A stretch of DNA of 64,000 nt from Chloroflexota bacterium. GTDB lineage: Bacteria; Chloroflexota; UBA11872; VXOZ01. Each line of letters begins with the position of its first letter. The stretch's first letter is position 1. Location: positions 1,377,790 through 1,441,789 of the forward strand of contig OZ244798.1 of NCBI GenBank assembly GCA_965220015.1, in the 5' to 3' direction. The notes below the pieces were generated by a model that worked only from the letters and a program-made list of their open reading frames with translations, did not search any database and was not told where the DNA came from. Shown here in pieces: positions 2,795 to 37,281 of the stretch. The position numbers and the translations under genes were made by a program.

Positions 2795-4536
2795 TTGCCA
2801 AAGGAAGCAGCAATCAACGTGGCGACCTCGTCGAAGACAGCCTCAGCAACTGCTGAATTCTCCGGGAAGGGAGTTGCCTCGGCGGCGAGCTACGTCAACC
2901 GGATTTCGCAGTTTGGCCGGCGCTTGCGGCTGTTGGCGGTGCTATTGCGGCTAGTCCGGGCCTTGTGGGTGGCGGCACTGCTTTACGTGGGTCTCTCGCT
3001 TATCGGGTCGCTGCTTGTGCCGCAGTTTCCGGTCTTTGCCGTCTGCTTTCTCCTTGCAATCGGCGTGTTCCTCGCCTTGGTCGTCCCTGCGGTGATGCGC
3101 CGTCTCAACACGCTCGACGTCGCCAAGGCCTACGATGAGCGTCTGTCGCTGTCCGAACGTCTTGCCACGGCGGTAGAAATGCTGGGGCGTACAGATGAGA
3201 ATCCGTTTCGCCCATTGCTCCTCGACGATGCCAGCCGTCACGCGGCAGAAATCCAACCGAGACAGGTATTTCCTCTTGCGATCCCGCAGCGAGACGTGCT
3301 TCTCCTGGCATTGGCATTGGTGGCGCTCTTTCTCTGGGAGGTGTTTCCCTATATGGCCGGTCAACTCGCTCCGCTTGCCCCCTTGGCGCACCAGGTAGCG
3401 GCAGTGCGTGAAGGCACGCTCATCGAGCAGACCTCACCGGATGCGTTCGTGGTCGGCGAAGATTCCGATACTCCCGTGGCGGCAAAGGACCTTGCGGAAC
3501 CGGTTGCGGCGCAGGAAGGGGCCCAGCAGGGCCAGAACCAGCCGTTACTCACGCAGGCTGAACTGAACCAGCAACAGAATTCCGCCCAGCAGGCTCAGGC
3601 CGCTGAGGAGGGGGAGGTGGGGGAGAACAAGGAAGGTGGGTCAGACCTCACAGATCTTGCGCAACAGCTTCAGGAAAGTCGCAATCCCCAGATCGATCAG
3701 CAAGCCACGTCTCTCGCCGAGATAGGCAGAGAGCTTACGCAGGCCCGGCCCTCACGCCAAGCCGGCCAGAACTTGGAGCGCGGCAACTACGAGCAGGCGG
3801 CGCAAGCGCTCGAAGAGTTGGCGCGGCAGGTGCGAGACCTCTCGCGAGAGGACCGCAATGACATGACCGATGCGTTTGCCAAGGCGGCCGAACGCGCGCA
3901 ACAGGCCGATCCGCGCCTGGCCCAGGAGTTAGCGGACGTGAGCAGGGAAGTCGCATCGTACAACGACCCCGCGACGGAGCGTGAACTGCAGGAACTAAGC
4001 GATGCCATTCAGGAGCGCGGACAGCGTATCCGGGCGCAGCAACAGTTGGAGCAGCAGGCTGAACAGTTGCGCGCCGGCGCGAGCGGCGAAGAATCAGGGG
4101 CGCAACAGAGCGATGCGCAGCAGCAGAGAAACCAGGCACAGCAGGCGTTCAACACAGCCGGCGTGGCGGAACAGCCGGGGCAGGCGCAGCAGCAAGATTC
4201 CTGGCAACTGCAGTCCGCGCCGGGCGGCCCAAGCCAAGGCGGCGGCAACCGCGGCGAGCAGTCCTTCGATCCGGGACCGGAAGCGCCCCGCCTGCAAATT
4301 CAACAGAAGCCATCGGTAGTCTTGGCGGACAGGGGGATTGGCCCGTCGCTCTGGTCGCCGCAACGTGCGCCGGTGGTTGTGCCCGGGCCAGGTTCAGCCC
4401 CGGCCCAGTATGGTGTTACCGACGCAGGTAACGCCATAATCTCCACGGGCGGCGCGAGTCACTTTGTGCCGTGGATGGTAGCCGACTATGTCCAACAATA
4501 CTTTAACGCCTTATCGAACGCGCTGGAGCAGTCACA

Positions 4537-5538: not shown

Positions 5539-6422
5539 AGCCGAGTCCTTCGGCATTGATCGACCATGCGTTCTTGCGGCGGTTGGACCGGCTGCAACTG
5601 ATCAGTCGACGCGGCTATGGCATGGTGAGCGGCGGCGGCAGGCGCAGCCGACAGTTCGGTTCGTCAATCGAGTTCGCCGACTACCGCAACTACAGCCCCG
5701 GCGATGACTTTCGCCACATAGACTGGAACGTCTTCGGTCGCTCGAATCGCCTCTACATCAAGCTGCGCGAAGCGGAAGAGCATCTTGCCGTTCACGTCCT
5801 CGTGGACGGCAGCCGCTCCATGGACTGGGGCCGGCAGAATAAGTTTGCGTATGCCAAGTCGCTGGCGGGCAGTTTGGGATACATTGCGCTGAATCGCGAC
5901 GACGTGCTGGCTGCCGCCGTGTTCAGCGATTCGGTCGAGCAGTACTTTGCGCCCGCCCAGGGCAGGGCCTTTGCCCTGCGCTTCTTCGACTTTCTCGAGC
6001 AGGCGGGCCCCGTTGGCGGCGCCACCTCGTTGGTAGCGGCGATACGCAATTACGTGGCCCGCAACGCGCAGCGCGGCCTGGTGATCTTGATCTCGGACAT
6101 GATGACGGAGGATGCCTATCGCGGCATCACGGCCATACAGGAAGCGGGGAATGAGCTTGTCCTCCTGCACGTGCTCGATTGGGCGGAAATCGATCCCGAA
6201 CTGAGCGGCGAGCTAAGTCTGGTCGATCGTGAAACCGGTCGATCCATCAATGTGGCGGCGGATGCGGAAACGCTCAACCAATACCGCGAGCACGTGCTCG
6301 ACTGGGCCGATCAGCTAGAAAAATTCTGCGGGCGGCGGAACGCGCGCTACGTGCGGCTCGAAACTTCATGGCCGCTGGAGGAAGTCATGTTTCAGCGGCT
6401 CTTGCGGAGAGTCGTTTTATGA
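5535..6422 (+). CDS. DUF58 domain protein (MoxR-associated, vWA-like fold)
   Basis: FGSSIEFADYRNYSPGDDFRHIDWNVFGRSNRLYIKL... followed by VLVDGSRSMDWG, which is typical of DUF58. ATGA overlap with moxR upstream and with the next gene downstream. Confidence 0.85.
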
Positions 6423-8266
6423 GCTTGCTGGTCCCATTGGCTCTCGCGTGGGGAGCGCTCGCGGGGCTGGTCTTGCTCTTCTACATACTGCGGCCGCGCA
6501 GCCTGCGCATTGAAGTGCCAAGCATCTTCCTTTGGCGCGACTTGGTGCAACGCGAGCAGGCGCTCACCTTGTGGCAGCGGCTGCGCAGACACCTCCTGCT
6601 GTTCCTCCAACTCCTCGCCATTCTCTTGCTGGCCCTTGTGCTGGCGCGTCCGGAGCGCACGGCAGACTCCCTCCCTCAACGGCACGTGGTGCACGTCATC
6701 GATGCCTCCGCCAGCATGAGCGTGGCCTTCGGGAACACCACGCGGCTGGAAGAAGCGAAGGCCGCCGCGCTTGCGCAGGTAGAGATCGTCGAACCGGGCG
6801 ATCTGCTCACAGTGATGTCATTTGGCAGCCAGCCAGCGGTCCTCTCGTACCAGAATCGAGAGTTGCAAGCCGCGCGCGCTGCTGTCGAGAGCATAACGCA
6901 GACTGCCACGGTGGGGGATACGGAACGCGCATTGCAGTTAGCTATTTCTCTCGCAGATTCTCTGCCCGGTAGTGAGGTCTTTCTCTACACTGACGGTAGT
7001 TTCCCCGCGCCCGCCGTGCCTGAGACTGTGAACACGACTGTGAATTTCGTCCGCGTGGGTACACCGGCCGACAATCAGGGAATCAGCGCCTTTGCCATTC
7101 GCCGTCACCTGGAGAGTCTCCAGGCCTTCGTACAGGTGCAGAACTACAGCGGACAATCAGTCACCGTGCCGCTGGTTATGTTGGCAGACGGGCAGCCGCT
7201 GGAACGACGCGAAATCACACTGGCTCCGTACCCGGAGCCCGGCTCGTCGCTTGACCTGCTCTTTGGTGACTTTCCTGCCGGCACGTCACGTGTGGACGTG
7301 GTGCTGGACCACGAGGATGCGCTGGCGGCGGACGACCGCACCGCGTCGATCCTCATGCCGCCGCCGGTGCTGCGGGCGCTGTTGGTCTCAGATTCACCCT
7401 TCTTTCTCAGCACCGTCTTCGCGCCGCTGCCAAACCTTGCGCTTGACCATGTGCGTCCCGTGGAGTTTCGCCCGGCGGACGTCTATGATCTTTACATCTT
7501 CGACGGCTGGCTGCCAGCGGAGCTCCCGCCGGGCAATTGGCTAATCATCAATCCTCCCCCAGGGTCGCCGATCTTGCCGGTGAGCGGCGAAATGTTTGAA
7601 CCGCCGCTGGAATATGTGGCGCAGGGCCACCGCCTTTTGCAGTTTGTGGATATTCGCGATTTGCGCGTGTCGCGGGCGCAACGCATGGAGTTGCCTGCCT
7701 GGGCGGACGAGCTCATAGGGAGCAATCGCGGGCCGCTGGTGTTCAGCGGGACGATTGACGGCCGGCGCATGGTAGTCTTTTCGTTTTCGATTGTGCAGAG
7801 CAACTTGCCGTTGCGCACGGCGTTTCCCGTGTTGATGGGAAACATCTATCAGTGGCTCAATCCGTACCGCATTCAAGAGACAGTTTCTCACTTTCAGCCT
7901 CAGGATGTGATAGAGCTGGGACTGCATCCGCATGCCGACCGCTTGGTGGTTGAGAGGCCTGACGGCGGGCGCATTTCCTTCGGCGGCAGGCAGCGCATTC
8001 CATTCTCCGCCACGGAGGAACTTGGCGTCTATCGCGTGGTGCACTATGCGGGAGAGCAGGAAGTTTACCGTGAAGTCTTCATCGTTAGTCTCCAGGACAT
8101 AACGGAAACCAACGTCGGCGCCCAGGTGCCGGCGCTCGCGAGCGGCGGAGCTGCGGTACCGCCCATTGAACTGCCGGTCTTCCAAGAGATGTGGCGGTTC
8201 TTGGCGCTCGCAGCGCTCTTACTCTTGCTCTGCGAATGGGTGTGGTATCACCGGGTGCGCACGTAG
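6419..8266 (+). CDS. BatA-like N-terminal membrane domain + von Willebrand factor A domain protein
   Basis: N-terminus MSLLVPLALAWGALAGLVLLFYILRPRSLRIEVPSIFLW matches the aerotolerance BatA N-terminal domain. The VWA MIDAS-like block is HVVHVIDASASMSV. A C-terminal TM helix is present. The start was moved to the ATG at 6419, which overlaps the DUF58 stop; the ORF track starts at 6368. Confidence 0.8.
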   Translation: MSLLVPLALAWGALAGLVLLFYILRPRSLRIEVPSIFLWRDLVQREQALTLWQRLRRHLLLFLQLLAILLLALVLARPERTADSLPQRHVVHVIDASASMSVAFGNTTRLEEAKAAALAQVEIVEPGDLLTVMSFGSQPAVLSYQNRELQAARAAVESITQTATVGDTERALQLAISLADSLPGSEVFLYTDGSFPAPAVPETVNTTVNFVRVGTPADNQGISAFAIRRHLESLQAFVQVQNYSGQSVTVPLVMLADGQPLERREITLAPYPEPGSSLDLLFGDFPAGTSRVDVVLDHEDALAADDRTASILMPPPVLRALLVSDSPFFLSTVFAPLPNLALDHVRPVEFRPADVYDLYIFDGWLPAELPPGNWLIINPPPGSPILPVSGEMFEPPLEYVAQGHRLLQFVDIRDLRVSRAQRMELPAWADELIGSNRGPLVFSGTIDGRRMVVFSFSIVQSNLPLRTAFPVLMGNIYQWLNPYRIQETVSHFQPQDVIELGLHPHADRLVVERPDGGRISFGGRQRIPFSATEELGVYRVVHYAGEQEVYREVFIVSLQDITETNVGAQVPALASGGAAVPPIELPVFQEMWRFLALAALLLLLCEWVWYHRVRT

Positions 8267-19661: not shown

Positions 19662-20576
19662 CTACGCAGGCAGCGTTGCATTGGCTAGTGGCAGCGCCTC
19701 TTCAAGCGCTCCGCGAATCGTGGGGAACGAGGCCGGTACGAGCTCCAGGCCCTCGCGCTCGGTGGCCTTTTGAATGTACTCCAGCACGTAATCGAGGTTT
19801 GGAATATTGACTTTCTCAGAGTTGTGCGTAGCGCCGATAATGGCCCGCACCGGTGTTTGGATGAGACCGGAAAGCTCGATATTCCAATCGATGATCGTGC
19901 GGTAGAGCTCTCTTGACTCCTCACTGACCGGCTCTTCCGAGCGGAGGTCACGCGGGCGCGCCCAGCGGCCGCCGGTCATTTCGCCGCTGCACGAAATGAC
20001 GCAGATCGGCAGCGCGCCGCCCAGAACATGATGTTGCGAGCTGCCCCAATGGGGATAGGGGTAGTCGCCTTCCGTGCAGCGGTCCGGCCGGTCCGGGAAG
20101 TAGCGCCCCGGCGCTGGGGCAATATACTGCCGGTAGCCCGCTTCATACAGCAGGCGCAGCGTTACAGGGCTCTTTGACCCGCAGCAGGCACAGTATGTGT
20201 CAGTCCTAAAGCCCAACGCGGTCTCGAAGTCCTCAGTAGCCTCGGCAATGATTTGGCGCTGCGTGGCTTCGTCGTATTCTCCGAGGTCATTCTCGTACTT
20301 GGGAAAGCGAAAGCCGGGGACATTGGGCTGGATGCCCATGTTCACGCCTTCGCCGGCCCACTCTCGCATCATGCCGGCGTGGGCCTTGGCTGCTTCAGGA
20401 GTGAGGTTGAAGGTGACGGCAGGCAGCAGACCATGCGACTCGAAGGATTGCCGGATGTTGCGCACGGTTCGCTCGCTCACTTCCCATGACCCCGGCCCGC
20501 CACAGCGAGGAGACTTAGCCGCCAGCGGCTCGCAGTCCACAAAGTAGGCAAAGTAGATATTATTCGAATCACCCAT
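19662..20576 (-). CDS. Hypothetical protein (no family recognised)
   Basis: 304-aa ORF with coding-like composition, 27 nt upstream of the transglutaminase-like gene on the same strand. Confidence 0.5.
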   Translation of the reverse strand: MGDSNNIYFAYFVDCEPLAAKSPRCGGPGSWEVSERTVRNIRQSFESHGLLPAVTFNLTPEAAKAHAGMMREWAGEGVNMGIQPNVPGFRFPKYENDLGEYDEATQRQIIAEATEDFETALGFRTDTYCACCGSKSPVTLRLLYEAGYRQYIAPAPGRYFPDRPDRCTEGDYPYPHWGSSQHHVLGGALPICVISCSGEMTGGRWARPRDLRSEEPVSEESRELYRTIIDWNIELSGLIQTPVRAIIGATHNSEKVNIPNLDYVLEYIQKATEREGLELVPASFPTIRGALEEALPLANATLPA

Positions 20577-20968
20577 AACGTGCTCCTTAATCGGAAATGA
20601 TAAGCCCTCTGGCGCGCTAGTCTCAGGCTAAGTGCCTCTTCTACTGGCTTGGTTTGCCAATGCGATTATATACCGATGCGAGTCTATTGAAAATGATGGC
20701 GGATGTGCGACGGCCGAGCTGCGCTGTCGCACATGCTGATTCGCTCTCTTGGAGTCCTTGACGACGAAGCAGGGGGATCGGGGGCCAGGTTGAACTATCT
20801 GGGGTCATTGTTCTCGTTGTGATGAGGGCAGGTACATTGGCGGCGTAGAAAGCACAGAGTCTTTGAATCTCAGAAATGAGTAGCGATGCAAGTGTGAAAA
20901 GTCGGCTTGGCGCTGACGGCATGTGCCCTGCCGGGGTGTTAGCGTCTCACACCAATTCTATAAACAGA

Positions 20969-20996
20969 GTAGGGGCACGACATGTCGTGCCCCTAC
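20969..20996. repeat. Perfect 28-bp palindrome GTAGGGGCACGACATGTCGTGCCCCTAC (copy 1); hairpin/terminator-like repeat element
   Basis: Exact reverse-complement symmetry. An identical copy lies at 26887-26914, and both are followed by the CTCATT flank. Copy 1 lies 3' of the minus-strand SBP gene. Confidence 0.7.
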
Positions 20997-21044
20997 TCAT
21001 TCTCCAATCAAGGAGATCAGATTCGCCAAAGCGAAGGTTCGGGC

Positions 21045-22454
21045 TTATCCCTCCCGATACTCTTCGGGGCGGCGATCGATGATCTCGTTGAGGATGTCGG
21101 CGGAGGTGCGCAGTGCTTCGGGCACCGTAATCTCGCCCTTCAGCGCTTCATACCAGGGCGCGTTGGACGGGCCGTAGGCTTCGCTGAATTCCAGCACGCG
21201 CGGGAACGGGCGGCCGCCGGCGGCCCAGCCGGCCACGACCTGATCCACCTGCGTGCCTTCGTAACGAGCTGCCCACTTCGGGAACAGGCCGTGCCGAATA
21301 ATCGGCGGCCAGGCAATGAAGCCGAAGTAGTCGGTTTCCTCAGCGCCCTCGTCGCTGTGGATGTACTTGAGGAAGCTCCAAGCAGTTTCCTGGTTCGGCG
21401 AGAGGGTCATGAGAGAATAGCCATTCCCGACGAGGGTGGCCGTTTGGTCCTCACCCTTCGGCGGCATGGCGATGTCCAACCTCTCCTCCAAGTGCGTCTT
21501 GGCGGCGTTATAACGGAACATGCCGTTGAACTCAAGAGCCAGTGCCCCCGCCTCGAGGATGCCGATACCGGACCGACCGGCAGTAACTTTCTGGATGTCC
21601 TCGCTGGACGGCGTGTACTGGTGCTTGATGTGGAGGTCCACGTTGAACTGGCCACCACGCGCCGATAGCGGGTCCTCGCCGTAGAGCGCCCTGGTGTCGT
21701 TCTCGTTCATGATGGACCCGCCAAAGTTGAGCATGAAGGTGCCGCCCATGTACCAGAGGTTGTTCTGGCCCACTTGCAGCGCCCAGCGGCCGTCGTCAGG
21801 CTTATGGAGCCGTTCGGCCATGGCGAGCAGGTCGTCATATGTCCAGTCACCGCCGGGATAGTTCAGGCCGGCATCGTCGAAGTACTCTTTGTTGAAGAGC
21901 ACCACTTCGCCGCCGGACTGCATGGGCACGGCGTAGAGCTTATTCTGCCAGGTCCAAGAACGAATGTCGGCGTTGAAGTAGTCTTCCAACGGAAGCTTGT
22001 CGCGCTGGAAGAAGGGGATGTGATCGGGGAAAATCCCGTTCAAACCGCCGTAGCCGTACCAGTTGATCTGGTTGATGGATAGGTCCACGTCGGCTTGTCC
22101 GGCCGCGTGGTTCGTCTGCCGTCGTTCCCAAATCGTGCTGTACTCGCCGGGGACAACCTCTGTCTTGATGCCCAGCGCTTCTTCGGCTTGCGCCAACGTG
22201 TTGCGGAACGCCTGGTAACGACCATCGGATTCGACGAAGGTCTCGTCAATCCGCATGATCTTCTCTTCCATCACCGCTTCTTCTTTGGCCTCAGGCTCCG
22301 GCTCTTTGTCGTCGGCCATCTCACCAGTCTGCGCAACCGGCACTGCGCCGCAAGCCGCCAAGAAGACCACGCCACCGAGACCACCTGCTCCCGCCAGAAA
22401 ACCGCGGCGGGAAAAAGCGTATTGCTTCTCTTGCATTTTCTCAATTCTCCTCAA
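21045..22454 (-). CDS. ABC transporter substrate-binding lipoprotein (sugar-type, family 1)
   Basis: Tat/lipoprotein-like N-terminus SRRGFLAGAGGLGGVVFLAACG, acidic linker, and an SBP_bac_1-like body. The start may be the ATG at 22436. Confidence 0.85.
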   Translation of the reverse strand: MRRIEKMQEKQYAFSRRGFLAGAGGLGGVVFLAACGAVPVAQTGEMADDKEPEPEAKEEAVMEEKIMRIDETFVESDGRYQAFRNTLAQAEEALGIKTEVVPGEYSTIWERRQTNHAAGQADVDLSINQINWYGYGGLNGIFPDHIPFFQRDKLPLEDYFNADIRSWTWQNKLYAVPMQSGGEVVLFNKEYFDDAGLNYPGGDWTYDDLLAMAERLHKPDDGRWALQVGQNNLWYMGGTFMLNFGGSIMNENDTRALYGEDPLSARGGQFNVDLHIKHQYTPSSEDIQKVTAGRSGIGILEAGALALEFNGMFRYNAAKTHLEERLDIAMPPKGEDQTATLVGNGYSLMTLSPNQETAWSFLKYIHSDEGAEETDYFGFIAWPPIIRHGLFPKWAARYEGTQVDQVVAGWAAGGRPFPRVLEFSEAYGPSNAPWYEALKGEITVPEALRTSADILNEIIDRRPEEYREG

Positions 22455-22790
22455 TCAGCCACTCTTTGACTCAAGTGGCACATTGACAGTACTACACTAG
22501 TCAACCACGCACGCCCGTTGGGCGGAATCGCCTCCTTTCCCTCAATCTCCTCCTGATCAGGTAGCCGTAGTATCGCATAAGAAAATTCAGTCGTCAATAC
22601 TACTTGAAAAGGGGTGGAATCCGTGTGCAAGTCTCCAATTGTGCGGTCGCTCGTAGTGGGCAGTCTCACGTTGCTGGCCCTTCTTCATGTCAGAGAGTGC
22701 TAGGCTGAGCCGCCATAGGCCAAAGTCTTGGCGCCTTTTGGAGGTGATCACGGGCCCTGTGGGAAAATTTAGTGTCAGCAACCGGAAAAC

Positions 22791-24401
22791 TTACGTGACT
22801 TCCGTCACCGTGACGCCATCGAACCAGGCGGTGCCCGCGGATCCGACCAGGGCGGAGAGCACGACCCGGCAGCAGTAGACATAAGGCGGCAGAGCGGGTG
22901 TGCTGACTTCAAGACGTGTCCAGTCTCGCGTGCCGGCAACCGGCTGCGACTGCACGCGATCCATAAACCCCATATCGCCGTTCCACTCGAGGGATACCGT
23001 AATTCCGCCTTGCAAGTCTTCTGTTCGGACCCAGGCTTCAAGCGCGAAGCGCTTACCGGCAGTTGCTGCCAGCAGCTTGCCGTCGTCATTGAGGACGCGG
23101 CGAATTGCCGGCAGCACCGGTTCGTGACCCCGATTGCGCCAGCGAATGCTCTGTTCGCTGGTGCGCGCTACCATTGCGTCGCATGCGAATTGCGTACCTG
23201 GCAGCACCCAGCGTGCCGCGCCTTCTGCGATGCCTGCGATGACAGCGCCGGCAGGCGGGAGGTCCGGATACGGCAACTGCGGGCTTGCCGCGGGAAGTGG
23301 GGTGAGAGGGGCTGCCGGCTTGCGTAGGGTCAGCATATCGAACAGGCAGCCACCGGAATCGATAGCGCGTACCCGGCACTCATCCGGCGCCACGCTAGTC
23401 AGCAAGAAGTGGTTGGTGGGCTTGGCCAACGCGGATACGGGATGCAGGTGGTCCCACAGCTCGCTGGGCGATAGGCTCATGTCGTAACCGCCTCCGCCCG
23501 AGACAAAGTACGTCACACCGTTCTCGCTGTCGTACTGTCCCTCTCGCAGCGGATGAAAGCGCTCGTAGATCGTGGCGTGGGCCGTATACACGATGTCAAC
23601 GCCGTAGCGTTCGAATAGCGGACAGAGCGCGCGTGTTGCCGGAATCTCGCAGTTGTTGGAGCAGTACGGTGGATGATGGAAGAATACGAGCTTCCAGCGC
23701 GCGTTCTGAAAACTCTTGAGGTCATTTTCCAGCCAGACCCATTGCTCGGAACCCGGTCGGTAGTCCATGTTGCTGTTGAGCACGGTGAAGTGCGCAGGAC
23801 CGTAATTGAAGGAGTACCAGTAGTGAGGTTCCGGATAGTTGAAATAGCGGAAGTATCCCTCATTGGGTGAATCGTGATTGCCCATAGCAGCAAACCAGGG
23901 CGTGTATGGCAGCAAGTTCTCCGTGCAGGCGAAGAAGTCGCCAAACTTCGCGATCTCGTCTTGGGCGTGGTCACCGGCGCCGACGCAGATGTCGGCGCGG
24001 TACGCGCGGGCGAGGTCGGCATTGCGCCTGTGAACCTCGTGGACGCGCAAACTATCGCCGTAGGTGGCGAACGAAAAGGGGGAATTGTCCCGCACGGCGG
24101 TGCGAAAGCTGGCGCCTTCTGAGGTAACTGTGTCTCCGCCAAGTGAAGAAGAAGAAACTCGATAGAAATAGTCCTGTTCGATTTCCAATCCCGTGAGGCG
24201 AACCGCATGGACTGTGCGCAGGGAGTCGTCTTGGCTGCGGCACGGATACGTCGGCTCCGGTCTGCCGGCGTAGGCGCTCCAGCCAAGTCTGGCACTCTTC
24301 TCGTATTCCAAAAGGGACGTGCCAGGTTCGTCGGTGTGCCACATAACCGTGATGGCATCGCGCGCGACGTTTTGTAGATAGGGGCCGGCGGCGATTCGCA
24401 T
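22791..24401 (-). CDS. Metallophosphoesterase, purple-acid-phosphatase-like (N-terminal FN3-like domain)
   Basis: GD-x-Q / GDxxY ... GNHD ... FFHHPPY ... AHATIYER phosphoesterase motifs follow an N-terminal PAP-type domain (YLQNVARDAITVMWHTDEP...LEYE). The start was set to MRIAAGPYLQNV (Met48 of the track ORF), 5 nt after the Kelch gene stop. The track ORF 24542 reads through the upstream gene. Confidence 0.8.
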   Translation of the reverse strand: MRIAAGPYLQNVARDAITVMWHTDEPGTSLLEYEKSARLGWSAYAGRPEPTYPCRSQDDSLRTVHAVRLTGLEIEQDYFYRVSSSSLGGDTVTSEGASFRTAVRDNSPFSFATYGDSLRVHEVHRRNADLARAYRADICVGAGDHAQDEIAKFGDFFACTENLLPYTPWFAAMGNHDSPNEGYFRYFNYPEPHYWYSFNYGPAHFTVLNSNMDYRPGSEQWVWLENDLKSFQNARWKLVFFHHPPYCSNNCEIPATRALCPLFERYGVDIVYTAHATIYERFHPLREGQYDSENGVTYFVSGGGGYDMSLSPSELWDHLHPVSALAKPTNHFLLTSVAPDECRVRAIDSGGCLFDMLTLRKPAAPLTPLPAASPQLPYPDLPPAGAVIAGIAEGAARWVLPGTQFACDAMVARTSEQSIRWRNRGHEPVLPAIRRVLNDDGKLLAATAGKRFALEAWVRTEDLQGGITVSLEWNGDMGFMDRVQSQPVAGTRDWTRLEVSTPALPPYVYCCRVVLSALVGSAGTAWFDGVTVTEVT

Positions 24402-24406
24402 GCCCG

Positions 24407-25327
24407 CTACCGCCGGTACGACCACACGTCGTTGTAGAGGGTGTCGCCAAAGCCGCCGATCAGCCACAGCTTTTCGCGGTACGTCAGGCAGACCGGCGCG
24501 TGACGAATGGGCCAGATGGGATCGCCGACGGCTTCCACCCAATGCGCGCCGTCGGCAGAAAACCAGACGTCGTTGCGGTTACCGTGGGTGTGGCCGCCGA
24601 TGATCCACAGCTTGTCGTCATACACAGCCGAAGCGTGGAAGCGCCGCTCTTGCCAGGCTGCGGCCACGGCTACCATCTCCCACGACTTGCCGTCGGTCGT
24701 ACACCACACGTCGTTGTGGTTTACTACGGTGTTGTTGGGGTAGTTCGTGTTGTACACGCCGCCGCCCATGAGCCACATCTTTCCGTCGAAAACCACGGAA
24801 GTCTGCATGCTGCGGGCGCTCCACGGCGCATGTTCCTCCACCAAGTCCCAGTGCTTGCCGTCGGTCGAGGTCCAAACGTCCTGGTAGTGGTGGGATTTCT
24901 CGATATCGAAACCGCCGAACAGCCACATTCTGCCATCGTATACGACGGCTGAGGCGGCGCTCCGTTTTCCCCACGGCGCGTCCAATGTAGCGGCTTCCCA
25001 GTGCTTGCCGTCGGTGGAACACCAGACGTCGTTGTACGAGACGTGTGGGTTATCCGCGCCGGCGAAAATCCAGATTTTGTCATTGTAGACGAGCGTACAG
25101 GGGAGATTGCGTGGCGCCCACGGCGCGGACGGCGTAACCTCTTCCCAATTGACGCCGTCGGACGACGACCACACGTCATTGACGCGGGTGGGGATGAAGC
25201 CTCCCAGGAACCACATCTTGTCCTGAAAGACCGCCCAGCCCATCGAGTCGCGTCTCGTCCATGGGGCTTCGGCTGTTTCTTGATTCCAAGCGACCGCAAC
25301 CGCTTGGCCTGCCGATTCTGTTTGCAT
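24407..25327 (-). CDS. Kelch-repeat beta-propeller protein
   Basis: Six repeats of the pattern ...NDVW.S.DG..W..... (for example NDVWSSSDGVNWEEV, NDVWCSTDGKHWEAA, QDVWTSTDGKHWDLV). GAGGAA RBS 4 nt before the ATG. Confidence 0.8.
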   Translation of the reverse strand: MQTESAGQAVAVAWNQETAEAPWTRRDSMGWAVFQDKMWFLGGFIPTRVNDVWSSSDGVNWEEVTPSAPWAPRNLPCTLVYNDKIWIFAGADNPHVSYNDVWCSTDGKHWEAATLDAPWGKRSAASAVVYDGRMWLFGGFDIEKSHHYQDVWTSTDGKHWDLVEEHAPWSARSMQTSVVFDGKMWLMGGGVYNTNYPNNTVVNHNDVWCTTDGKSWEMVAVAAAWQERRFHASAVYDDKLWIIGGHTHGNRNDVWFSADGAHWVEAVGDPIWPIRHAPVCLTYREKLWLIGGFGDTLYNDVWSYRR

Positions 25328-25560
25328 CTGTTTCCTCGCTTCTGCGCGCCTTGGGGCCGCGGCACTCTGGATTCCTATGAATACGATAGCAAATTTAGAG
25401 AGTTTAGGGTGGCTGGAACGATGCCTTGCTGATGAATACTCTAATGACCTCGCGCGGCGTACTCTTACAGTCTTTCGTTATACTGATAGGCATATTCGTG
25501 TTTGGCGAGCAAGTCTACACACTATTTCGTTTGCGCAGCTCTCGAAAAGCGGTCGAGCCC

Positions 25561-26820
25561 ATGATCAACTACACACCTCATGACGAGGAGCGTCTCTATC
25601 CGGAAGAAGAAAAAGTCGCCGATGATCGGGAGGCGTTCGAGCGGGACCGCGGGCGCATCATACACAGTGCCGCCTTTCGTCGCTTGCAGGGCAAGACGCA
25701 GGTATTCGGCGTGCGCTACGGCGACTTCTTTCGCACGCGGCTTACCCACTCCTTGGAGGTGGCGCAGATCGGCAAGGCGCTGGCCCTGCGATTGGGGGCT
25801 GACCCCACCCTGGTTGAGGCGATCTGCCTCGCCCACGACATCGGCCACCCCCCGTTCGGCCACTACGGCGAGCAGGTCTTGCGGACGCGCATGGCGCAAC
25901 ATGGCGACTTTGAAGCGAACGCTCAGAACTTGCGTGTGCTGACCCAACTAGAGGTCAAGTCGGACCGCTATCCGGGGCTCAACCTAACGCGCAGCGTGCT
26001 GGACGGTCTGCTGAAGTATAAGGCGCTCCATGGCTCGCGGCCCGGTATGAGGAAGTTCTGCTACGCCGAGGACGCAACGCTGCTTGAGTGGATTTGCGCG
26101 AATGGCGCATTGGAAGAGCGTTCCTTCGAATGCCAGATCATGGACTGGGCCGATGACGTGGCCTATTCGGCGCACGACCTCGAAGACGGCATTCACGTGG
26201 GCATGATCACAATCCAGCACCTGCGGCGTCCCTCGAACCAGGATGCCGTCATCCAGCGGGTGCGGGAAAGTGCGGAGGAACGCGGGCGAACCTGGTCGGC
26301 CGGCGAGGTGGTCCAGGAGCTCGACTGGCTTGCGGCGCGTTTAATCGAACTGGAAGAGCTGCCCACGCCGCGGCACGTGCGCGCCGCATTGAAGCACCTG
26401 ACCTCGCGCTTGATCAATGAGTTTGTGCGCTGTGCCCAGGTGGCGCCCCGCTTGGGTTGGCGGGAGAGTCTCTCGGAGCGCTACCGGTACGGAATCATGG
26501 TCCCCGATGCGCAGGAACGGCGCTGCGAGGTGCTGAAACAGGTGGCCTTCGTCTTGGTGTTCGCGGAACCACGGGTTACAACCCTCGCCCACCGCGCCCG
26601 CCACATGGTAGACCGTCTCTTCGACGTCTTTCAGGAAGAAGAGAGTGCGGCGATGTACTCTCTGGAATTCCAGGAACACTTTTCAGCAGCGAGGGACGAC
26701 GCCACGCGCCGCCGCGTAGCCTGCGACTACCTAGCGACCATGACGGACTTTCAAGCGGAACGCACGTACCAACGCCTCTTCGTGCCCGGCTACGAGAGTA
26801 TCCTAGAGCCGCTGGTGTGA
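25561..26820 (+). CDS. dgt: Deoxyguanosinetriphosphate triphosphohydrolase-like HD-domain protein
   Basis: RDRGRIIHSAAFRRLQGKTQV...THSLEVAQIGKALA...HDIGHPPFGH matches the dGTPase HD-domain signature. The start was set to the Met at 25561 (MINYTPHDEE); the track start is 25426. Confidence 0.85.
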   Translation: MINYTPHDEERLYPEEEKVADDREAFERDRGRIIHSAAFRRLQGKTQVFGVRYGDFFRTRLTHSLEVAQIGKALALRLGADPTLVEAICLAHDIGHPPFGHYGEQVLRTRMAQHGDFEANAQNLRVLTQLEVKSDRYPGLNLTRSVLDGLLKYKALHGSRPGMRKFCYAEDATLLEWICANGALEERSFECQIMDWADDVAYSAHDLEDGIHVGMITIQHLRRPSNQDAVIQRVRESAEERGRTWSAGEVVQELDWLAARLIELEELPTPRHVRAALKHLTSRLINEFVRCAQVAPRLGWRESLSERYRYGIMVPDAQERRCEVLKQVAFVLVFAEPRVTTLAHRARHMVDRLFDVFQEEESAAMYSLEFQEHFSAARDDATRRRVACDYLATMTDFQAERTYQRLFVPGYESILEPLV

Positions 26821-26886
26821 GCCGCAGTCGCGCAGCCGTGTAGTGAACGGCGCACGAATCATGAATCCATTGATCTAACGAATCGC

Positions 26887-26914
26887 GTAGGGGCACGACA
26901 TGTCGTGCCCCTAC
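26887..26914. repeat. Perfect 28-bp palindrome GTAGGGGCACGACATGTCGTGCCCCTAC (copy 2), between convergent dgt and oxidoreductase genes
   Basis: Identical to copy 1 at 20969-20996. It lies in a convergent intergenic gap, consistent with a bidirectional terminator hairpin. Confidence 0.7.
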
Positions 26915-27003
26915 TTCTCATTGCAATGACGTTCGTTGCTGGGCGGTTCGCGAACCGCCCCTACATTGCCATTCGTCCTACCGCCCCTACCTCACCTTTC
27001 GTC

Positions 27004-28092
27004 CTACCACACCTCTTCCGTCCTGCGCCAAACCATCTGCGGTCGCACATTCTCCAGGGGCAAGTCGGCAATTATGCTGTAGTCCTCACCGTGGTACGCG
27101 GCGATGATGGCCTCCATCGACTTCTTGGATTCGACGCCGTCAGTCAGCGGCGTCTTGTCGTTCACGATGCAGTCTATGAAGTGCTCGCACTCGCCGGCGA
27201 AGTTCTTGCGCGCGCTGAAGGCATCCATCAGGTCGGCCTTGCTGGGATCGTCTTCTATAAGAAGCGTGCCTTCCTTGTCGCCCGCCTGCCAGAGTGTCAA
27301 GCGGCGGACGCCGTCGGGATCGTAGCTCAGGATCAACTCGCCGCCTTCCAGGTAGACCGCGAAGCGTAAATGGCAATCGCTGTGCTTGGTACCCCAGGAA
27401 GCCACGTAGTTGCCCAAGGCGCCGCTGGCAAAACGATAGATTGAGACTGCCGTATCTTCACGGCCGAGGGTCTCCCGGCGGAAGCGGTCGTCGCTGAGGC
27501 AGGTGGATTGCACGACGTCGCCCAAGTTCCAGATCATCTGGTCGACGTAATGGCAGCCGTGGCTGAGCAGGCATCCCATGGGGAAGGTCTTCCACGACTT
27601 GCGCCACCCTGCCGGATTCGCCATGTTATCTTCCGTGCGTACTTGGGCCATGTAGGGCTGGCCGTACGCGCCGCCGGTCACCTGCTCGTTGAGTTTCTGC
27701 CAGATAGGTTGAAAGCGGGTGACGTACGCCACCATGAGCTTGACGTCTTTCTCATCTGCAACGCGGATCATCTCGTCGGCGTCTTCGAGCGTCGTCGCCA
27801 TTACCTTCTCGGTAAGCACGTGCTTGCCGCGATGCATAGCGGCCAGGCTCATCTCCGCGTGCAGATGGGGCGGCGTGCAGATGTCTACGGCGTCTACCTC
27901 ATCGAGAATCGACAGATAGTCTGTCGACCACTTAGAGCCGGTGCGCTCCGCCTCGGCCTTAGCCTTCTCTTCATCCACGTCCACGCAGTAGGCCAGTTCA
28001 CAGGCTTCGCTCATGCGGGCATAGGCATTGATGTGCCCGGTGCTAATGCCACCGCAACCGATGACGGCTATGCGAATCTTGCTTTCGTTCAT
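27004..28092 (-). CDS. Gfo/Idh/MocA-family NAD(P)-dependent oxidoreductase
   Basis: N-terminal Rossmann motif IRIAVIGCGGISTGH, CTPPHLHAEMSLAAMHRGKHVLTEKVMA, and the C-terminal GFO_IDH_MocA_C region. Confidence 0.9.
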   Translation of the reverse strand: MNESKIRIAVIGCGGISTGHINAYARMSEACELAYCVDVDEEKAKAEAERTGSKWSTDYLSILDEVDAVDICTPPHLHAEMSLAAMHRGKHVLTEKVMATTLEDADEMIRVADEKDVKLMVAYVTRFQPIWQKLNEQVTGGAYGQPYMAQVRTEDNMANPAGWRKSWKTFPMGCLLSHGCHYVDQMIWNLGDVVQSTCLSDDRFRRETLGREDTAVSIYRFASGALGNYVASWGTKHSDCHLRFAVYLEGGELILSYDPDGVRRLTLWQAGDKEGTLLIEDDPSKADLMDAFSARKNFAGECEHFIDCIVNDKTPLTDGVESKKSMEAIIAAYHGEDYSIIADLPLENVRPQMVWRRTEEVW

Positions 28093-28281
28093 GCTTGTGC
28101 ACTCCTCTTGGCACTATTGGTACTATCTCTATGTCAATACAATTTCAATCGGCGGACTTGAGTTGACCTGGGCATACGCCTACTGCAAGTAGGTTGCCGC
28201 GCTCCGCCAATGGCAAGCAAGCTTGCCTAGCGGACCCAGGGAGCGGAGTTGCGCGGCTCCGAACACGCGTAAACACCACGG

Positions 28282-29640
28282 CTAGAATAGCCGTCCTAGT
28301 AGCTCAACCGCGCACTCTTCCATCGCAGGCCCGGTGCCGACTCCGCCGAGCGACGAATAGCCGGCCCACGTTTCATAGCCGCCGTGCTCGGTCAGGGCCT
28401 TATCCGTGCACACATAGCCAATGTAACCGTTAGCCAGGCTCACTACGAATTGCGGAGAAGCGGGCGAATGCTGCTTGATGTTCAGGCCAAACTCCACAAA
28501 GATCTCGCCGGGCAAGGCGACAATTGATGCGTCTCCCAGACGCAGGGCTTGCACCGGCGCGGTGTGCGTAATCGGCATTTTGGCCAAGCGTTGGCACTCA
28601 ACTGCGTAAACGTCTGAAAGTTGACTCGGTAATGTTTGACCGACCACCCAGCTAAACGGACCGGAATCGTAATCGGAGTACGTTCCTGCGGGAACCGCCA
28701 GGATCTTCTCAGCCATGGCAAGGTCCTCGTCCGTGATGTCCTTGCGCTTGAAGTCGAAAGTGCCGACTGCGGCCCCAAGCACGAGCTCGTCCTGCATCTC
28801 CATGAGTTGAATCTCAGTGATGAGGTGGCCGGCAAGCACGTTTGCCATCTTAGCGGCTTGCTCGTGGCCGCTCGCGGTCCACTTGCGCTTGCCGCTGTAG
28901 TCATTGTTGTTGATGTCGCCCGAAGTACCGTTCCAGACCATGCCGACACATTGCGGGTCAAGGTAGCGTTGAATGAGCCGGTGGAAGTGCCCAAAGTAGT
29001 CTGCGGAAATGGCGAGGCCGTTGTCCGTGCCTACGTAGTGGAGGACGAAATTTGACACGGCGGCGATGGGCCGTCCGTCCGCCCCTTCGACGTAGAGCAT
29101 GGTGACTTCGGGATCTTTGGGATAGGTTGGCTTAACGAGGTCGGGATTGCCCGCGCCCGGGTTCATGCGCACGGTGCCGTCGCGCATGTGCCAGCGGCGG
29201 TTGAACGAGATGCGGTCCTCGTGAGCAGTGGCAAAGCCGATGCGCGCAGCCTGCAGGCGGTGAGTAGCTATTTCTACGGCATCCGCCATTTTGAGCGGCG
29301 CCCACTCGACATAGGCCTTGTCCTCGCCGGTGCCGAGGAGATCGGCAACGCCGGCGGCCGTATGGGTATGCGTCGCGTTGATCATGACGTTTTCGGGAGG
29401 GATGTCGCAGCGCGCGGCGATGCGCTCTTTGGCCCGGTCCGCCATCCCTTGGGGCATCACGATGAGGTCGCACGTAACAAGCGCAATCCGCATCTCGCCA
29501 TTGTCGATCACCAACGCCTTGGCCAGGAGCTCGTCGTCGACATGTTCGGCGTAGCGCGTACGATGGCTTCCCGGCACCTCTATGCCCAGCCACGGTGTGA
29601 TATTTGCCGTGGCAGCGCCGGCTTGCAGTGATGTACTCAC
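28282..29640 (-). CDS. Neutral/alkaline ceramidase N-terminal-domain-like hydrolase (paralog 1)
   Basis: AGAATANITPWLGIEVPG ... ALVIDNGEMRIALVTCDLIVMP ... NATHTHTAAG matches the neutral-ceramidase catalytic-domain pattern (GAAxxDITP ... HTHSGP). The start was set to the GTG at 29640, preceded by AAAGGAG at an 8-nt spacing. This parallels the paralog N-terminus MSGQLRAGAATANLTPW. Confidence 0.7.
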   Translation of the reverse strand: MSTSLQAGAATANITPWLGIEVPGSHRTRYAEHVDDELLAKALVIDNGEMRIALVTCDLIVMPQGMADRAKERIAARCDIPPENVMINATHTHTAAGVADLLGTGEDKAYVEWAPLKMADAVEIATHRLQAARIGFATAHEDRISFNRRWHMRDGTVRMNPGAGNPDLVKPTYPKDPEVTMLYVEGADGRPIAAVSNFVLHYVGTDNGLAISADYFGHFHRLIQRYLDPQCVGMVWNGTSGDINNNDYSGKRKWTASGHEQAAKMANVLAGHLITEIQLMEMQDELVLGAAVGTFDFKRKDITDEDLAMAEKILAVPAGTYSDYDSGPFSWVVGQTLPSQLSDVYAVECQRLAKMPITHTAPVQALRLGDASIVALPGEIFVEFGLNIKQHSPASPQFVVSLANGYIGYVCTDKALTEHGGYETWAGYSSLGGVGTGPAMEECAVELLGRLF

Positions 29641-37138: not shown

Positions 37139-37162
37139 TTTACGCAACCGGTGTTGCGTAAA
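37139..37162. promoter_or_regulatory. Candidate operator: 10-bp perfect inverted repeat TTTACGCAAC-N4-GTTGCGTAAA upstream of the ABC-2 exporter operon
   Basis: Exact dyad symmetry 70-93 nt upstream of the ABC ATPase start codon (37069, - strand). Confidence 0.4.
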
Positions 37163-37172
37163 TGCAGCGGGA

Positions 37173-37205
37173 GTTGCCGGTGTGAAGTCTCCTCACACCG
37201 GCAAC
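37173..37205. terminator. Hairpin GTTGCCGGTGTGA-AGTCTCC-TCACACCGGCAAC (13-bp stem) between the YdeI-like gene 3' end and the ABC operon promoter region
   Basis: Perfect 13-bp inverted repeat with a 7-nt loop, ~77 nt beyond the stop of the minus-strand gene that ends at 37282. No clear U-tract follows. Confidence 0.35.
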
Positions 37206-37281
37206 TTGCGATTCTTGCTGTGCGAGCGTGGAAACTCCGTAGTGTGCATCTGTTGGCATGGTTTGGCTGGGACTTAGTGGT

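Follow-up and report, generated by a model that had tools for sequence, protein, structure and literature searches.

The two identical palindromes carried by the 64,000-nucleotide stretch of Chloroflexota DNA analysed here (hereafter the window) are very probably REPs of the double-foot type, GTAGGGGC-N12-GCCCCTAC, belonging to the family associated with RAYT subclass 2.4 (group 4); they would be spread and maintained by a RAYT and may act at the 3' ends of genes. The element is a new member of an already described family and occurs in many phyla. Since the palindromes are copies of a kind of repeat that has already been described, the finding is real yet essentially ordinary.

The palindromes and their surroundings

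The 28-mer GTAGGGGCACGACATGTCGTGCCCCTAC is a perfect palindrome found exactly twice in the window, at 20969-20996 (copy 1) and 26887-26914 (copy 2), 5,918 bp apart, in agreement with the preliminary description of this DNA. No third copy with three or fewer mismatches is present in the whole 64-kb window, and 100 dinucleotide-preserving shuffles of the window gave no match to the sequence. No perfect dyad in the window is longer than these two, which have 14 bp per arm; in copy 1 the dyad reaches 16 bp per arm (20967-20998) by way of an additional GA...TC. Neither copy has a strand. Each reads GTAGGGGC-ACGACATGTCGT-GCCCCTAC, with a GTAG foot at one end (20969-20972 and 26887-26890) and, at the 3' end, CTAC, which is GTAG on the opposite strand. 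The 28-mer is predicted to form a GC-rich hairpin with a stem of 12-14 bp. As single-stranded DNA the hairpin has a calculated dG of -17.5 kcal/mol (z -8.2) for copy 1 and -14.5 kcal/mol (z -5.7) for copy 2, and it prevails in the predicted RNA folds of the transcript context of both copies.

Copy 1 is situated 48 nt 3' of the stop codon of a gene for an extracellular solute-binding protein (SBP), which occupies 21045..22454 on the minus strand (SBP_bac_1, 70 bits; SBP_bac_8, 65.9 bits). Copy 2 lies in a convergent gap of 183 nt, 66 nt past the stop codon of a dGTPase-like gene (25426..26820, plus strand, with HD and HD_assoc domain matches) and 89 nt past that of a GFO_IDH_MocA oxidoreductase gene (27004..28092, minus strand, by domain match), whose 3' end also faces this REP-containing region. 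These are the surroundings originally reported, namely the end of a sugar-SBP gene for copy 1 and the convergent gap between dgt and a Gfo/Idh/MocA gene for copy 2. The 3' flank (T)CTCATT, which the two copies had been said to share, has to be given up as part of the element. The final C of the palindrome already belongs to the CTCATT hexamer in copy 1, while in copy 2 the hexamer begins 3 nt beyond it; the hexamer is not kept at the orthologous sites of related genomes. Because the offsets differ and the flank is not conserved elsewhere, the repeat consists of the 28-mer and nothing more.

The neighbour of copy 2, 26 bp away, is a REP of a different type, GTAGGGGCGGTTCGCGAACCGCCC in its minus-strand reading (26941..26964). 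It has a GTAGGGGC foot and a dyad of 10 bp per arm, its other foot having decayed to TGCT in place of GTAG. One relative (L127) has the intact, 28-bp double-foot form of this second type, GTAGGGGCGGTTCGCGAACCGCCCCTAC. A partial right arm, CCGCCCCTAC (26981..26990, plus strand), is by its sequence a fragment or duplicate of the second type, and in another relative (L126) the stretch matching 26981-26990 has grown into tandem partial units. The number, position and completeness of the second type differ between related genomes; the region around copy 2 is a small dynamic REP cluster. The inverted pair of the same REP with a short spacer that defines a REPIN does not occur here, both window copies being solitary. 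The term "repetitive" rests on the family, as the window itself shows two copies and one of the second type. Extrapolation from two copies in 64 kb would give some 110 copies per genome, with a Poisson range of roughly 13-400; several copies per genome are observed in other genomes.

A number of other candidates and readings were set aside. The remaining CCCCTAC sites of the window (33605, 53782, 55573 and 62815) lack a hairpin and are not related to REPs. A candidate decayed copy at 1228-1260 has the 13-mer CGACATGTCGTGC in common with the palindrome; since it lies within an acetyl-CoA synthetase gene and encodes an 11-residue protein motif, the likeness is a coincidence. A CRISPR-like or tandem-array reading was rejected, the window being without any array. 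The sole periodic case encountered is a 284-bp array in another genome (locus L076). An assembly or adapter artefact is excluded by two short-read contigs (L121 and L122) that are 100% identical to the window, and also by the presence of the element in many independent long-read chromosomes. A search of Rfam 15 with both strands of 20500-27300 returned nothing at E <= 1.

The hairpins had also been proposed to form a terminator family. On the strand of the gene that precedes it (minus for the SBP gene, plus for the dGTPase-like gene), each copy fits a loose terminator pattern with five T in the 8-nt tail, and both lie 48-66 nt past a stop codon. However, terminator-like sites are no commoner than in shuffled sequence (6 versus 6.3), and the tails, TGTTTATA and TTCTCATT, are weak and differ in the orthologues (CCTCGTCT and GCGCGTTA). 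Orthologous sites do not preserve the T-rich tails, which makes canonical intrinsic termination doubtful. That the copies are Rho-independent terminators which evolved locally, have no mobile origin and are identical by chance is exceedingly improbable, for it is not credible that one and the same 28-mer arose independently at two sites, across more than ten phyla and within RAYT genes.

The family and its association with RAYT genes

When one genome per species was scanned for the core TAGGGGCACG-N6-CGTGCCCCTA, at least 120 loci were obtained, which span more than ten phyla. Among the matches listed, the core is found in Chloroflexota, Acidobacteriota, Planctomycetota, Desulfobacterota, Nitrospirota, Bacteroidota/Rhodothermales and Cyanobacteria, and also in Deinococcus, Firmicutes, Poribacteria, Omnitrophota and two CPR lineages. 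The exact 28-mer is present in at least 120 JGI metagenome loci and the core on 22 IMG/VR contigs. The element is thus not specific to this genome, as had been supposed. None of the 120 listed genome loci contains a region homologous to the window, as judged by blastn, so that the genome from which the window comes is not among the matches listed. The loci share G-TAGGGGCACG-(6-mer)-CGTGCCCCTA-C only, and their flanks are unrelated over about 150 copies.

The architecture GTAGGGGC-N12-GCCCCTAC is fixed, with a length of 28 bp and a GTAG foot on both strands. In all the DNA fetched, 291 of 301 GTAGGGG...CCCCTAC elements, a set that includes further inner sequences such as GTAGGGGCGGTTCGCGAACCGCCCCTAC, are exactly 28 bp long and 258 are perfect palindromes. 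The outer bases are G..C in 135 of 151 copies of the family. The central 6-mers include GCATGC, GCGCGC, ATATAT, ACATGT, ATGCAT, TTGCAA and others, the commonest being GCATGC (25 of 128 copies among the matches listed in the genome scan). Upon aligning the copies, pair 12-17 is found to be Watson-Crick in 149 of 151, with all four pair types represented, and pair 13-16 in 136 of 151, while the central dinucleotide (positions 14-15) is self-complementary in 129 of 151. For none of these three quantities was the observed value reached in 2,000 shuffles. The variation of the centre is compensatory and the stem pairs covary across copies. Half-way intermediates in the symmetry of the centre make up about 9% of the copies. 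The central four bases are invariably YRYR, and the centre variants therefore differ by transitions only. Two copies from the same genome have the same centre in 55% of pairs, versus 9% expected. As positions 14 and 15 cannot pair in the hairpin, the symmetry of the apex is not explained by hairpin stability.

The placement of 130 copies was compared with that of random positions in the same loci, using a crude gene model based on the longest ORFs. The copies lie inside ORFs in 31% of cases (random positions, 84%), in convergent gaps in 14.6% (1.8%, an eight-fold enrichment), in tandem gaps in 24.6% (5.3%) and in divergent gaps in 6.2% (2.6%). By the same crude model and for the same 130 copies, the median distance to the nearest 3' end of a gene is 39 nt. 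Both window copies match this placement of the family on the 3' side of genes.

All ORFs of the 120 listed genome loci were clustered without prior selection. The most recurrent clusters are ubiquitous families (ABC ATPases, response regulators and oxidoreductases) that do not overlap the palindrome. A single cluster does so, an IS200-like Y1/HUH transposase of the RAYT kind, in five of the 120 loci and in five genomes (L011, L022, L027, L059 and L111). The association with a RAYT gene goes beyond the interpretation offered in the preliminary description. The proteins concerned are 174-204 residues long and have the motifs MPNH[MVLI]HGI (HuH), VWQRNYYEH or VWQRNYYEHIIR, and YI[QMAL]xNP. They match Pfam Y1_Tnp with 29-30 bits (cutoff 23) and NCBIfam REP_Tyr_transpos with E values of 1e-16 to 1e-19 and 58-70 bits, scores that fall short of the equivalog cutoff (80). 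Within the RAYT gene the palindrome is in frame, between the HuH and Tyr motifs, and different genes translate it in two frames, as RGTxxRAPT or as VGARxxVPL. JGI often gives these proteins the name "REP element-mobilizing transposase RayT".

An independent set of metagenome loci gave the same arrangement, the exact 28-mer being found in the RAYT loop (as VGARHVVPL) in five of 120 listed loci. Exact 28-mers are embedded in RAYT genes in loci L123-125, L153, L191, L194, L197 and L205. In four loci a second copy abuts the 3' end of the RAYT gene, 265-266 bp away, and its GTAG provides the TAG stop codon. In the RAYT P0044 (L123-125) the exact 28-mer is translated as RGTTCRAPT, and a partial duplicate of one arm comes after it. 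Some of the RAYTs that carry the exact 28-mer have DHVH in place of NHxH. The RAYT family is very large, with about 8,000 candidates at E <= 1e-10. Among the closest 120 of the approximately 8,000 homologues of one such RAYT, the loop peptide is RGT..RAPT in 63 and VGAR..VPL in 8 (71 of 120 together), and VGAKNFSPL, the translation of another double-foot REP, occurs in about 19, all of these counts being inflated by the word-based selection of candidates in the homologue search. The window itself contains no RAYT gene or pseudogene detectable by tblastn with five RAYT proteins, which gave only trivial 9-residue matches to the translation of the palindrome. Among the best 120 of about 8,000 hits in each of two homologue searches, none is on a contig of 3.3-3.7 Mb, the range of chromosome lengths in this clade.

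A recognition site for a dimeric DNA-binding protein or a nuclease had been suggested as an alternative. An operator, partition or restriction-type site bound as a duplex by a symmetric dimer would account for the dyad symmetry that runs through the central dinucleotide, where it cannot be selected by intrastrand pairing, and for the fixed length of 28 bp. However, the copies follow genes and are not in promoters, and they are tolerated in coding sequence in two reading frames. The sole recurrent neighbouring gene that overlaps the palindrome is the Y1 transposase. Furthermore, the centre is free to vary by transitions between genomes and the GTAG-GGGC feet are fixed, which is the published pattern of recognition of REPs by RAYTs. 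A duplex site is therefore very improbable. The suggestion of a nuclease was partly correct, in that REPs are substrates of HUH endonucleases (RAYT, or TnpA-REP), but the substrate is a folded single strand and not a duplex bound by a dimer.

Comparison with described REPs

The closest described relatives are the REPs of TnpA-Y1 subclass 2.4, which is equivalent to group 4 of Bertels (Quentin et al. 2018, PMC6006769). The enzymes of this subclass have the motifs NH[IFV]H, WQ and YIxNNP and a median length of 194 residues, and are found in "Cyanobacteria, Bacteroidetes and various phyla". Their "double foot" REPs have 5' GT[AG]G and 3' C[TC]AC, and, as a property unique to the subclass, REPs are inserted in the tnpA-REP gene between HuH and Y with the frame intact. 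Table S1 of that study places next to subclass 2.4 genes the REPs GTAGGGGCGAAAAATTTTTCGCCCCTAC (28 nt, double-foot), GTAGGGGCACGGCATGCCGTGCCC and GTAGGGGCACGGCGTGCCGTGCCC; the exact ACATGT-centred 28-mer is absent from this table. Group 4 was found to be common in Cyanobacteria, Chlorobia and Caldilineae and to extend over 17 classes (Bertels et al. 2017, PMC5581495). The RAYTs described above resemble those of subclass 2.4 in having NHxH, WQ and YIxxNP and a REP in frame between HuH and Y.

The REP GTAGGGGCGAAAAATTTTTCGCCCCTAC of CaerA01 (BAM00060.1) is, like the window element, 28 nt long, with a GTAGGGGC foot and its complement GCCCCTAC, a 12-bp stem and a self-complementary apex of 4 nt. 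The two differ in their inner 12 nt, which are GAAAAATTTTTC in CaerA01 and ACGACATGTCGT in the window. The peptide encoded by the CaerA01 REP is VGAKNFSPL. We take the code CaerA01 to denote Caldilinea aerophila. The GTAGGGGCACGGCATGCCGTGCCC(C) REPs of PphaA01 (ACF44614.1), GproA01 (CBL47335.1, with a GCGTGC centre) and CalsB01 (AFY32102.1) have the same foot and arms as the window element (GTAGGGGCACG...CGTGCCC). GTAGGGGCACGGCATGCCGTGCCC is the version with a GCATGC centre, from which the ACATGT of the window differs by the symmetric change G12A/C17T. These three REPs are tabulated as single-foot 24-25-mers (PMC6006769), whereas the window element is a double-foot 28-mer.

GTAG-tagged REPs are present in several phyla, mostly downstream of ORFs (Di Nocera et al. 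2013, PMC3733652). Among the attributes by which they are recognised (Nunvar 2010; Di Nocera 2013), three are found here: a GT[AG]G foot, a GC-rich hairpin of 20-40 bp, and an extragenic position downstream of ORFs, between tandem and convergent genes. A further attribute is dispersal in many copies through one genome, for which the 64 kb of the window offers two copies and one of the second type. Both window copies have the double foot, and in other genomes the REP is found inside the RAYT gene and the RAYTs have the expected motifs (NH[IFV]H, WQ, YIxNNP) and a length near 194 residues. By its match to the published descriptions, the window element agrees with REPs in every defining feature tested. 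The proposal that the palindromes are REP-like elements at gene ends is upheld, since REPs are defined by these very traits of foot, hairpin and position 3' of genes. A search of the literature for the string TAGGGGCACG returned only unrelated matches to eukaryotic primers.

The REPs and BIMEs of E. coli, with their TnpA-REP (RayT, subclass 2.2), likewise have a GTAG foot and a GC-rich hairpin and are extragenic, most of them lying 3' of genes and in convergent gaps. They are substrates of a Y1 HUH enzyme that acts on folded single-stranded DNA, and have documented effects as terminator or stabiliser elements in 3'UTRs (bioRxiv 10.64898/2026.03.23.713779). However, the palindrome of an E. coli REP is imperfect, having a bulge and a single foot, and these REPs are specific to one strand, restricted in lineage and placed beside the RAYT gene, not within it, whereas the window element is perfect, has two feet, is the same on both strands and is common to many phyla. 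The REPINs of Pseudomonas (RAYT group 3; Bertels and Rainey 2011) are also short palindromes of the GTAG type, thought to be mobilised by a single-copy RAYT, and resemble the window element in being passed down vertically and persisting in their hosts over long times. In a REPIN, however, two REPs stand in inverted orientation on either side of a spacer, whereas the unit seen here is a single symmetric element of 28 bp. The subterminal hairpins of IS200/IS605 elements are, similarly, recognised as single-stranded DNA by a related Y1 HUH transposase. They bracket a multi-copy IS containing tnpA with or without tnpB, whereas the window copies are accompanied by neither an IS body nor tnpA.

Conservation and possible roles

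Relatives whose proteins are at least 90% identical include OZ242272.1, OZ242329.1, OZ244803.1 and others. At the site of copy 2, two relatives (L126 and L127) have the 28-mer with 28/28 identity, in a surrounding spacer that is heavily rearranged. At the site of copy 1 a perfect 28-bp palindrome is present in L128-L130, L132 and L133, 48-54 nt past the SBP stop codon, in a setting where the downstream spacer cannot be aligned among relatives. At this site the window and L132 have ACATGT as the centre of the palindrome, and L128-130 and L133 have ATATAT, a symmetric double change that retains the perfect palindrome. The neighbouring genes have 82-91% nucleotide identity and an identity of 0.56-0.76 at third codon positions. 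At the third-position rate, the probability of 28/28 identity by chance is 4e-4 to 1e-7; the element is thus actively conserved or re-homogenised. Since both copies are of long standing and keep their positions from species to species, there is no direct sign of recent mobility here. At more distant orthologues of the 304-residue neighbour gene (44-61% protein identity, in genomes of 65-71% GC) the element is absent. These loci do not provide a clean empty site because their synteny differs, there being an operon of SBP, 322-residue and 303-residue genes, or no SBP gene. The spacer in the window has no detectable remnant of the 322-residue gene.

It is possible, though somewhat unlikely, that the copies derive from REPs but are now maintained by the host, as relics of an ancient RAYT-driven spread that are kept for a structural role of the RNA or DNA at the 3' ends of genes. 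Such a role, protecting the 3' ends of mRNAs and attenuating convergent read-through, would be independent of RAYT, which this genome may have lost. The occupation of both sites in species that have diverged to this extent at third positions and whose adjacent spacers cannot be aligned fits with host maintenance, as do the symmetric double substitution that preserved the perfect palindrome of copy 1, the conserved distance to the SBP stop codon (48-54 nt), the strong hairpins predicted for the RNA in its transcript context and the lack of a RAYT within the window. The 3'UTR functions of the E. coli REPs point in the same direction (bioRxiv 10.64898/2026.03.23.713779). However, an RNA hairpin requires neither a set sequence nor GTAG/CTAC feet, yet 26-28 of the 28 positions are fixed, and the same sequence is found in the RAYT-embedded copies of other phyla. 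The symmetry of the unpaired apex is superfluous for the stability of an RNA, the U-tracts are not conserved, and the lack of a RAYT holds for the 64 kb of the window.

The preferred reading, in which a RAYT would spread these double-foot REPs and the retained copies would act at gene 3' ends, can be put in terms of two activities. During replication, the hairpin formed by single-stranded DNA, with its GTAG foot, would be bound and cleaved or joined by a cognate RAYT, whereby copies would spread and be maintained. Cleavage and strand transfer are here extrapolated to subclass 2.4 from the enzymes of subclasses 2.2 and 2.5 (Messing 2012; Corneloup 2021). The perfect palindrome makes the two strands equivalent as substrates. 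The putative cognate RAYT, if present, would be encoded elsewhere in the 3.56-Mb chromosome, outside the window. Once transcribed, copies situated in 3'UTRs could form hairpins that block 3'-5' exonucleases and attenuate read-through, by analogy with what has been reported for E. coli. If so, the copies retained beside the SBP, dGTPase-like and GFO genes would serve these genes as local 3'-end elements.

The symmetry through the two central bases, which cannot pair, has no explanation in a simple hairpin model. One rather speculative extension is that a RAYT gene with its embedded REP constitutes a self-contained module which seeds populations of REPs after horizontal transfer, and that an active process makes the copies symmetric. 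Candidates for such a process, by which each copy would remain a substrate on either strand, would be template switching at the centre of the palindrome or the copying of one half to the other by RAYT; the difference between ACATGT and ATATAT might be its footprint. The dyad symmetry of the apex, the strict length of 28 bp and the recurrence of the same sequence both within the RAYT gene and across more than ten phyla are pointers to a module of this kind. We regard the proposal as unlikely.

For the annotation of the window, the hairpins are to be described as REPs and not as a new regulatory site, a genome-specific signature or an operator for a protein. Whereas the 2018 catalogue has only a handful of genomes, the GTAGGGGCACG-N6-CGTGCCCCTAC REP proves to be far more widespread, with at least 120 loci in each of the two collections scanned and more than ten phyla, CPR lineages among them. 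The symmetry of the apex and the long-term conservation of position are the sole points that go slightly beyond the literature consulted. The former is a concrete oddity that bears on how perfect-palindrome REPs are recognised and propagated, a question raised by Corneloup et al. 2021. The latter, that two sites remain perfectly palindromic across Chloroflexota species that have diverged by 24-44% at synonymous sites, lends support to a picture of REPs as residents that are maintained in their genomes over long times, and not as transient junk.

Palindrome copy 2 and hairpins elsewhere in the window

The second copy of the 28-bp palindrome (REP) in the window, at 26887-26914, is the exact site at which a short-read contig (L121, Logan ERR13602196_417769) terminates. 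This contig corresponds to window positions 26888-29588 with 100% identity and its end lies inside the 28-mer. The assembly graph evidently breaks at copy 2, a repeated and self-complementary sequence.

Three further long perfect hairpins, with stems of 12, 10 and 14 bp, are situated at 344-376 and 37139-37206 of the window. They lack the GTAG/CTAC tags and may be ordinary terminators or another type of repeat. The 13-mer CGACATGTCGTGC at 1241-1253 is identical to the REP core. It falls within the coding sequence of acetyl-CoA synthetase (minus-strand gene, 431-2752) and specifies a motif of that protein, and the match was judged to be a coincidence.

REPs associated with RAYT genes and viral contigs

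In four metagenome contigs (L191, L194, L197 and L205), the TAG stop codon of the gene for the RAYT, an IS200-like transposase, comes from the GTAG foot of the abutting REP. The distance between this gene-abutting REP and the REP embedded in the gene is constant at 265-266 bp. The REP core is also present on 22 IMG/VR contigs classified as viral (L255-L276), and no RAYT homologue was found on these contigs.

One arm of the palindrome is partly duplicated in tandem beside full REPs in four loci (L046 at ~48-104, L088 at ~2150-2199, L070 at ~3258-3275 and L123 at 2377-2435), as exemplified by GTAGGGGCACGATGCC, which is repeated ahead of a full REP copy. In the loops of the RAYT homologues P0023, P0054, P0097 and P0117, arm duplications appear as peptide stutters (RGTACCRGTACRAPT, VGARHVGARHAVPL). 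These partial duplications may be footprints of slippage or of abortive processing.

Repeat copy number in other Chloroflexota genomes

A different palindrome with the same foot, the second REP type, lies beside copy 2 (26941-26964, minus strand). Compared with the window, the related locus L126 (OZ242272.1) carries extra tandem partial units, three GATGTAGGGGCGGTAGGACTGAA-like repeats, beside the second REP type at 3600-3690, and an additional copy of GTAGGGGCGGTTCGCGAAC on the opposite side of the 28-mer. These differences show that the second REP type changes copy number between species. In another Chloroflexota chromosome (L076, OZ244814.1), an intergenic gap at 6321-7136 contains 2.9 tandem copies of a 284-bp unit that are 94% identical. 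Every unit has one double-foot REP with an ATATAT centre, and the array is thus a BIME-like composite repeat.

The spacer around copy 1

In a distant relative (L277, 664-3912), a 322-aa gene comes immediately after the SBP gene, with the 303-aa orthologue of the window's 304-aa gene next in line, and the three apparently form an operon. The 322-aa gene is missing from the window's clade, its place being taken by a non-coding spacer of 450-690 nt that contains the REP. A tblastn search of the corresponding window spacer (20577-21044) detected no remnant of the 322-aa gene.

A promoter-like TTTTCA-17-TATAAT element is found at ~20665-20693 on the minus strand, upstream of the 304-aa gene (19662-20576). 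The block containing it, GCATCGGTATATAATCGCATTGG, is invariant throughout the clade, and the rest of the spacer is unalignable. The occurrence of this motif in a clade-invariant block implies that the 304-aa gene has a predicted promoter of its own, and that REP copy 1 (20969-20996) would be the end mark of the SBP transcription unit.
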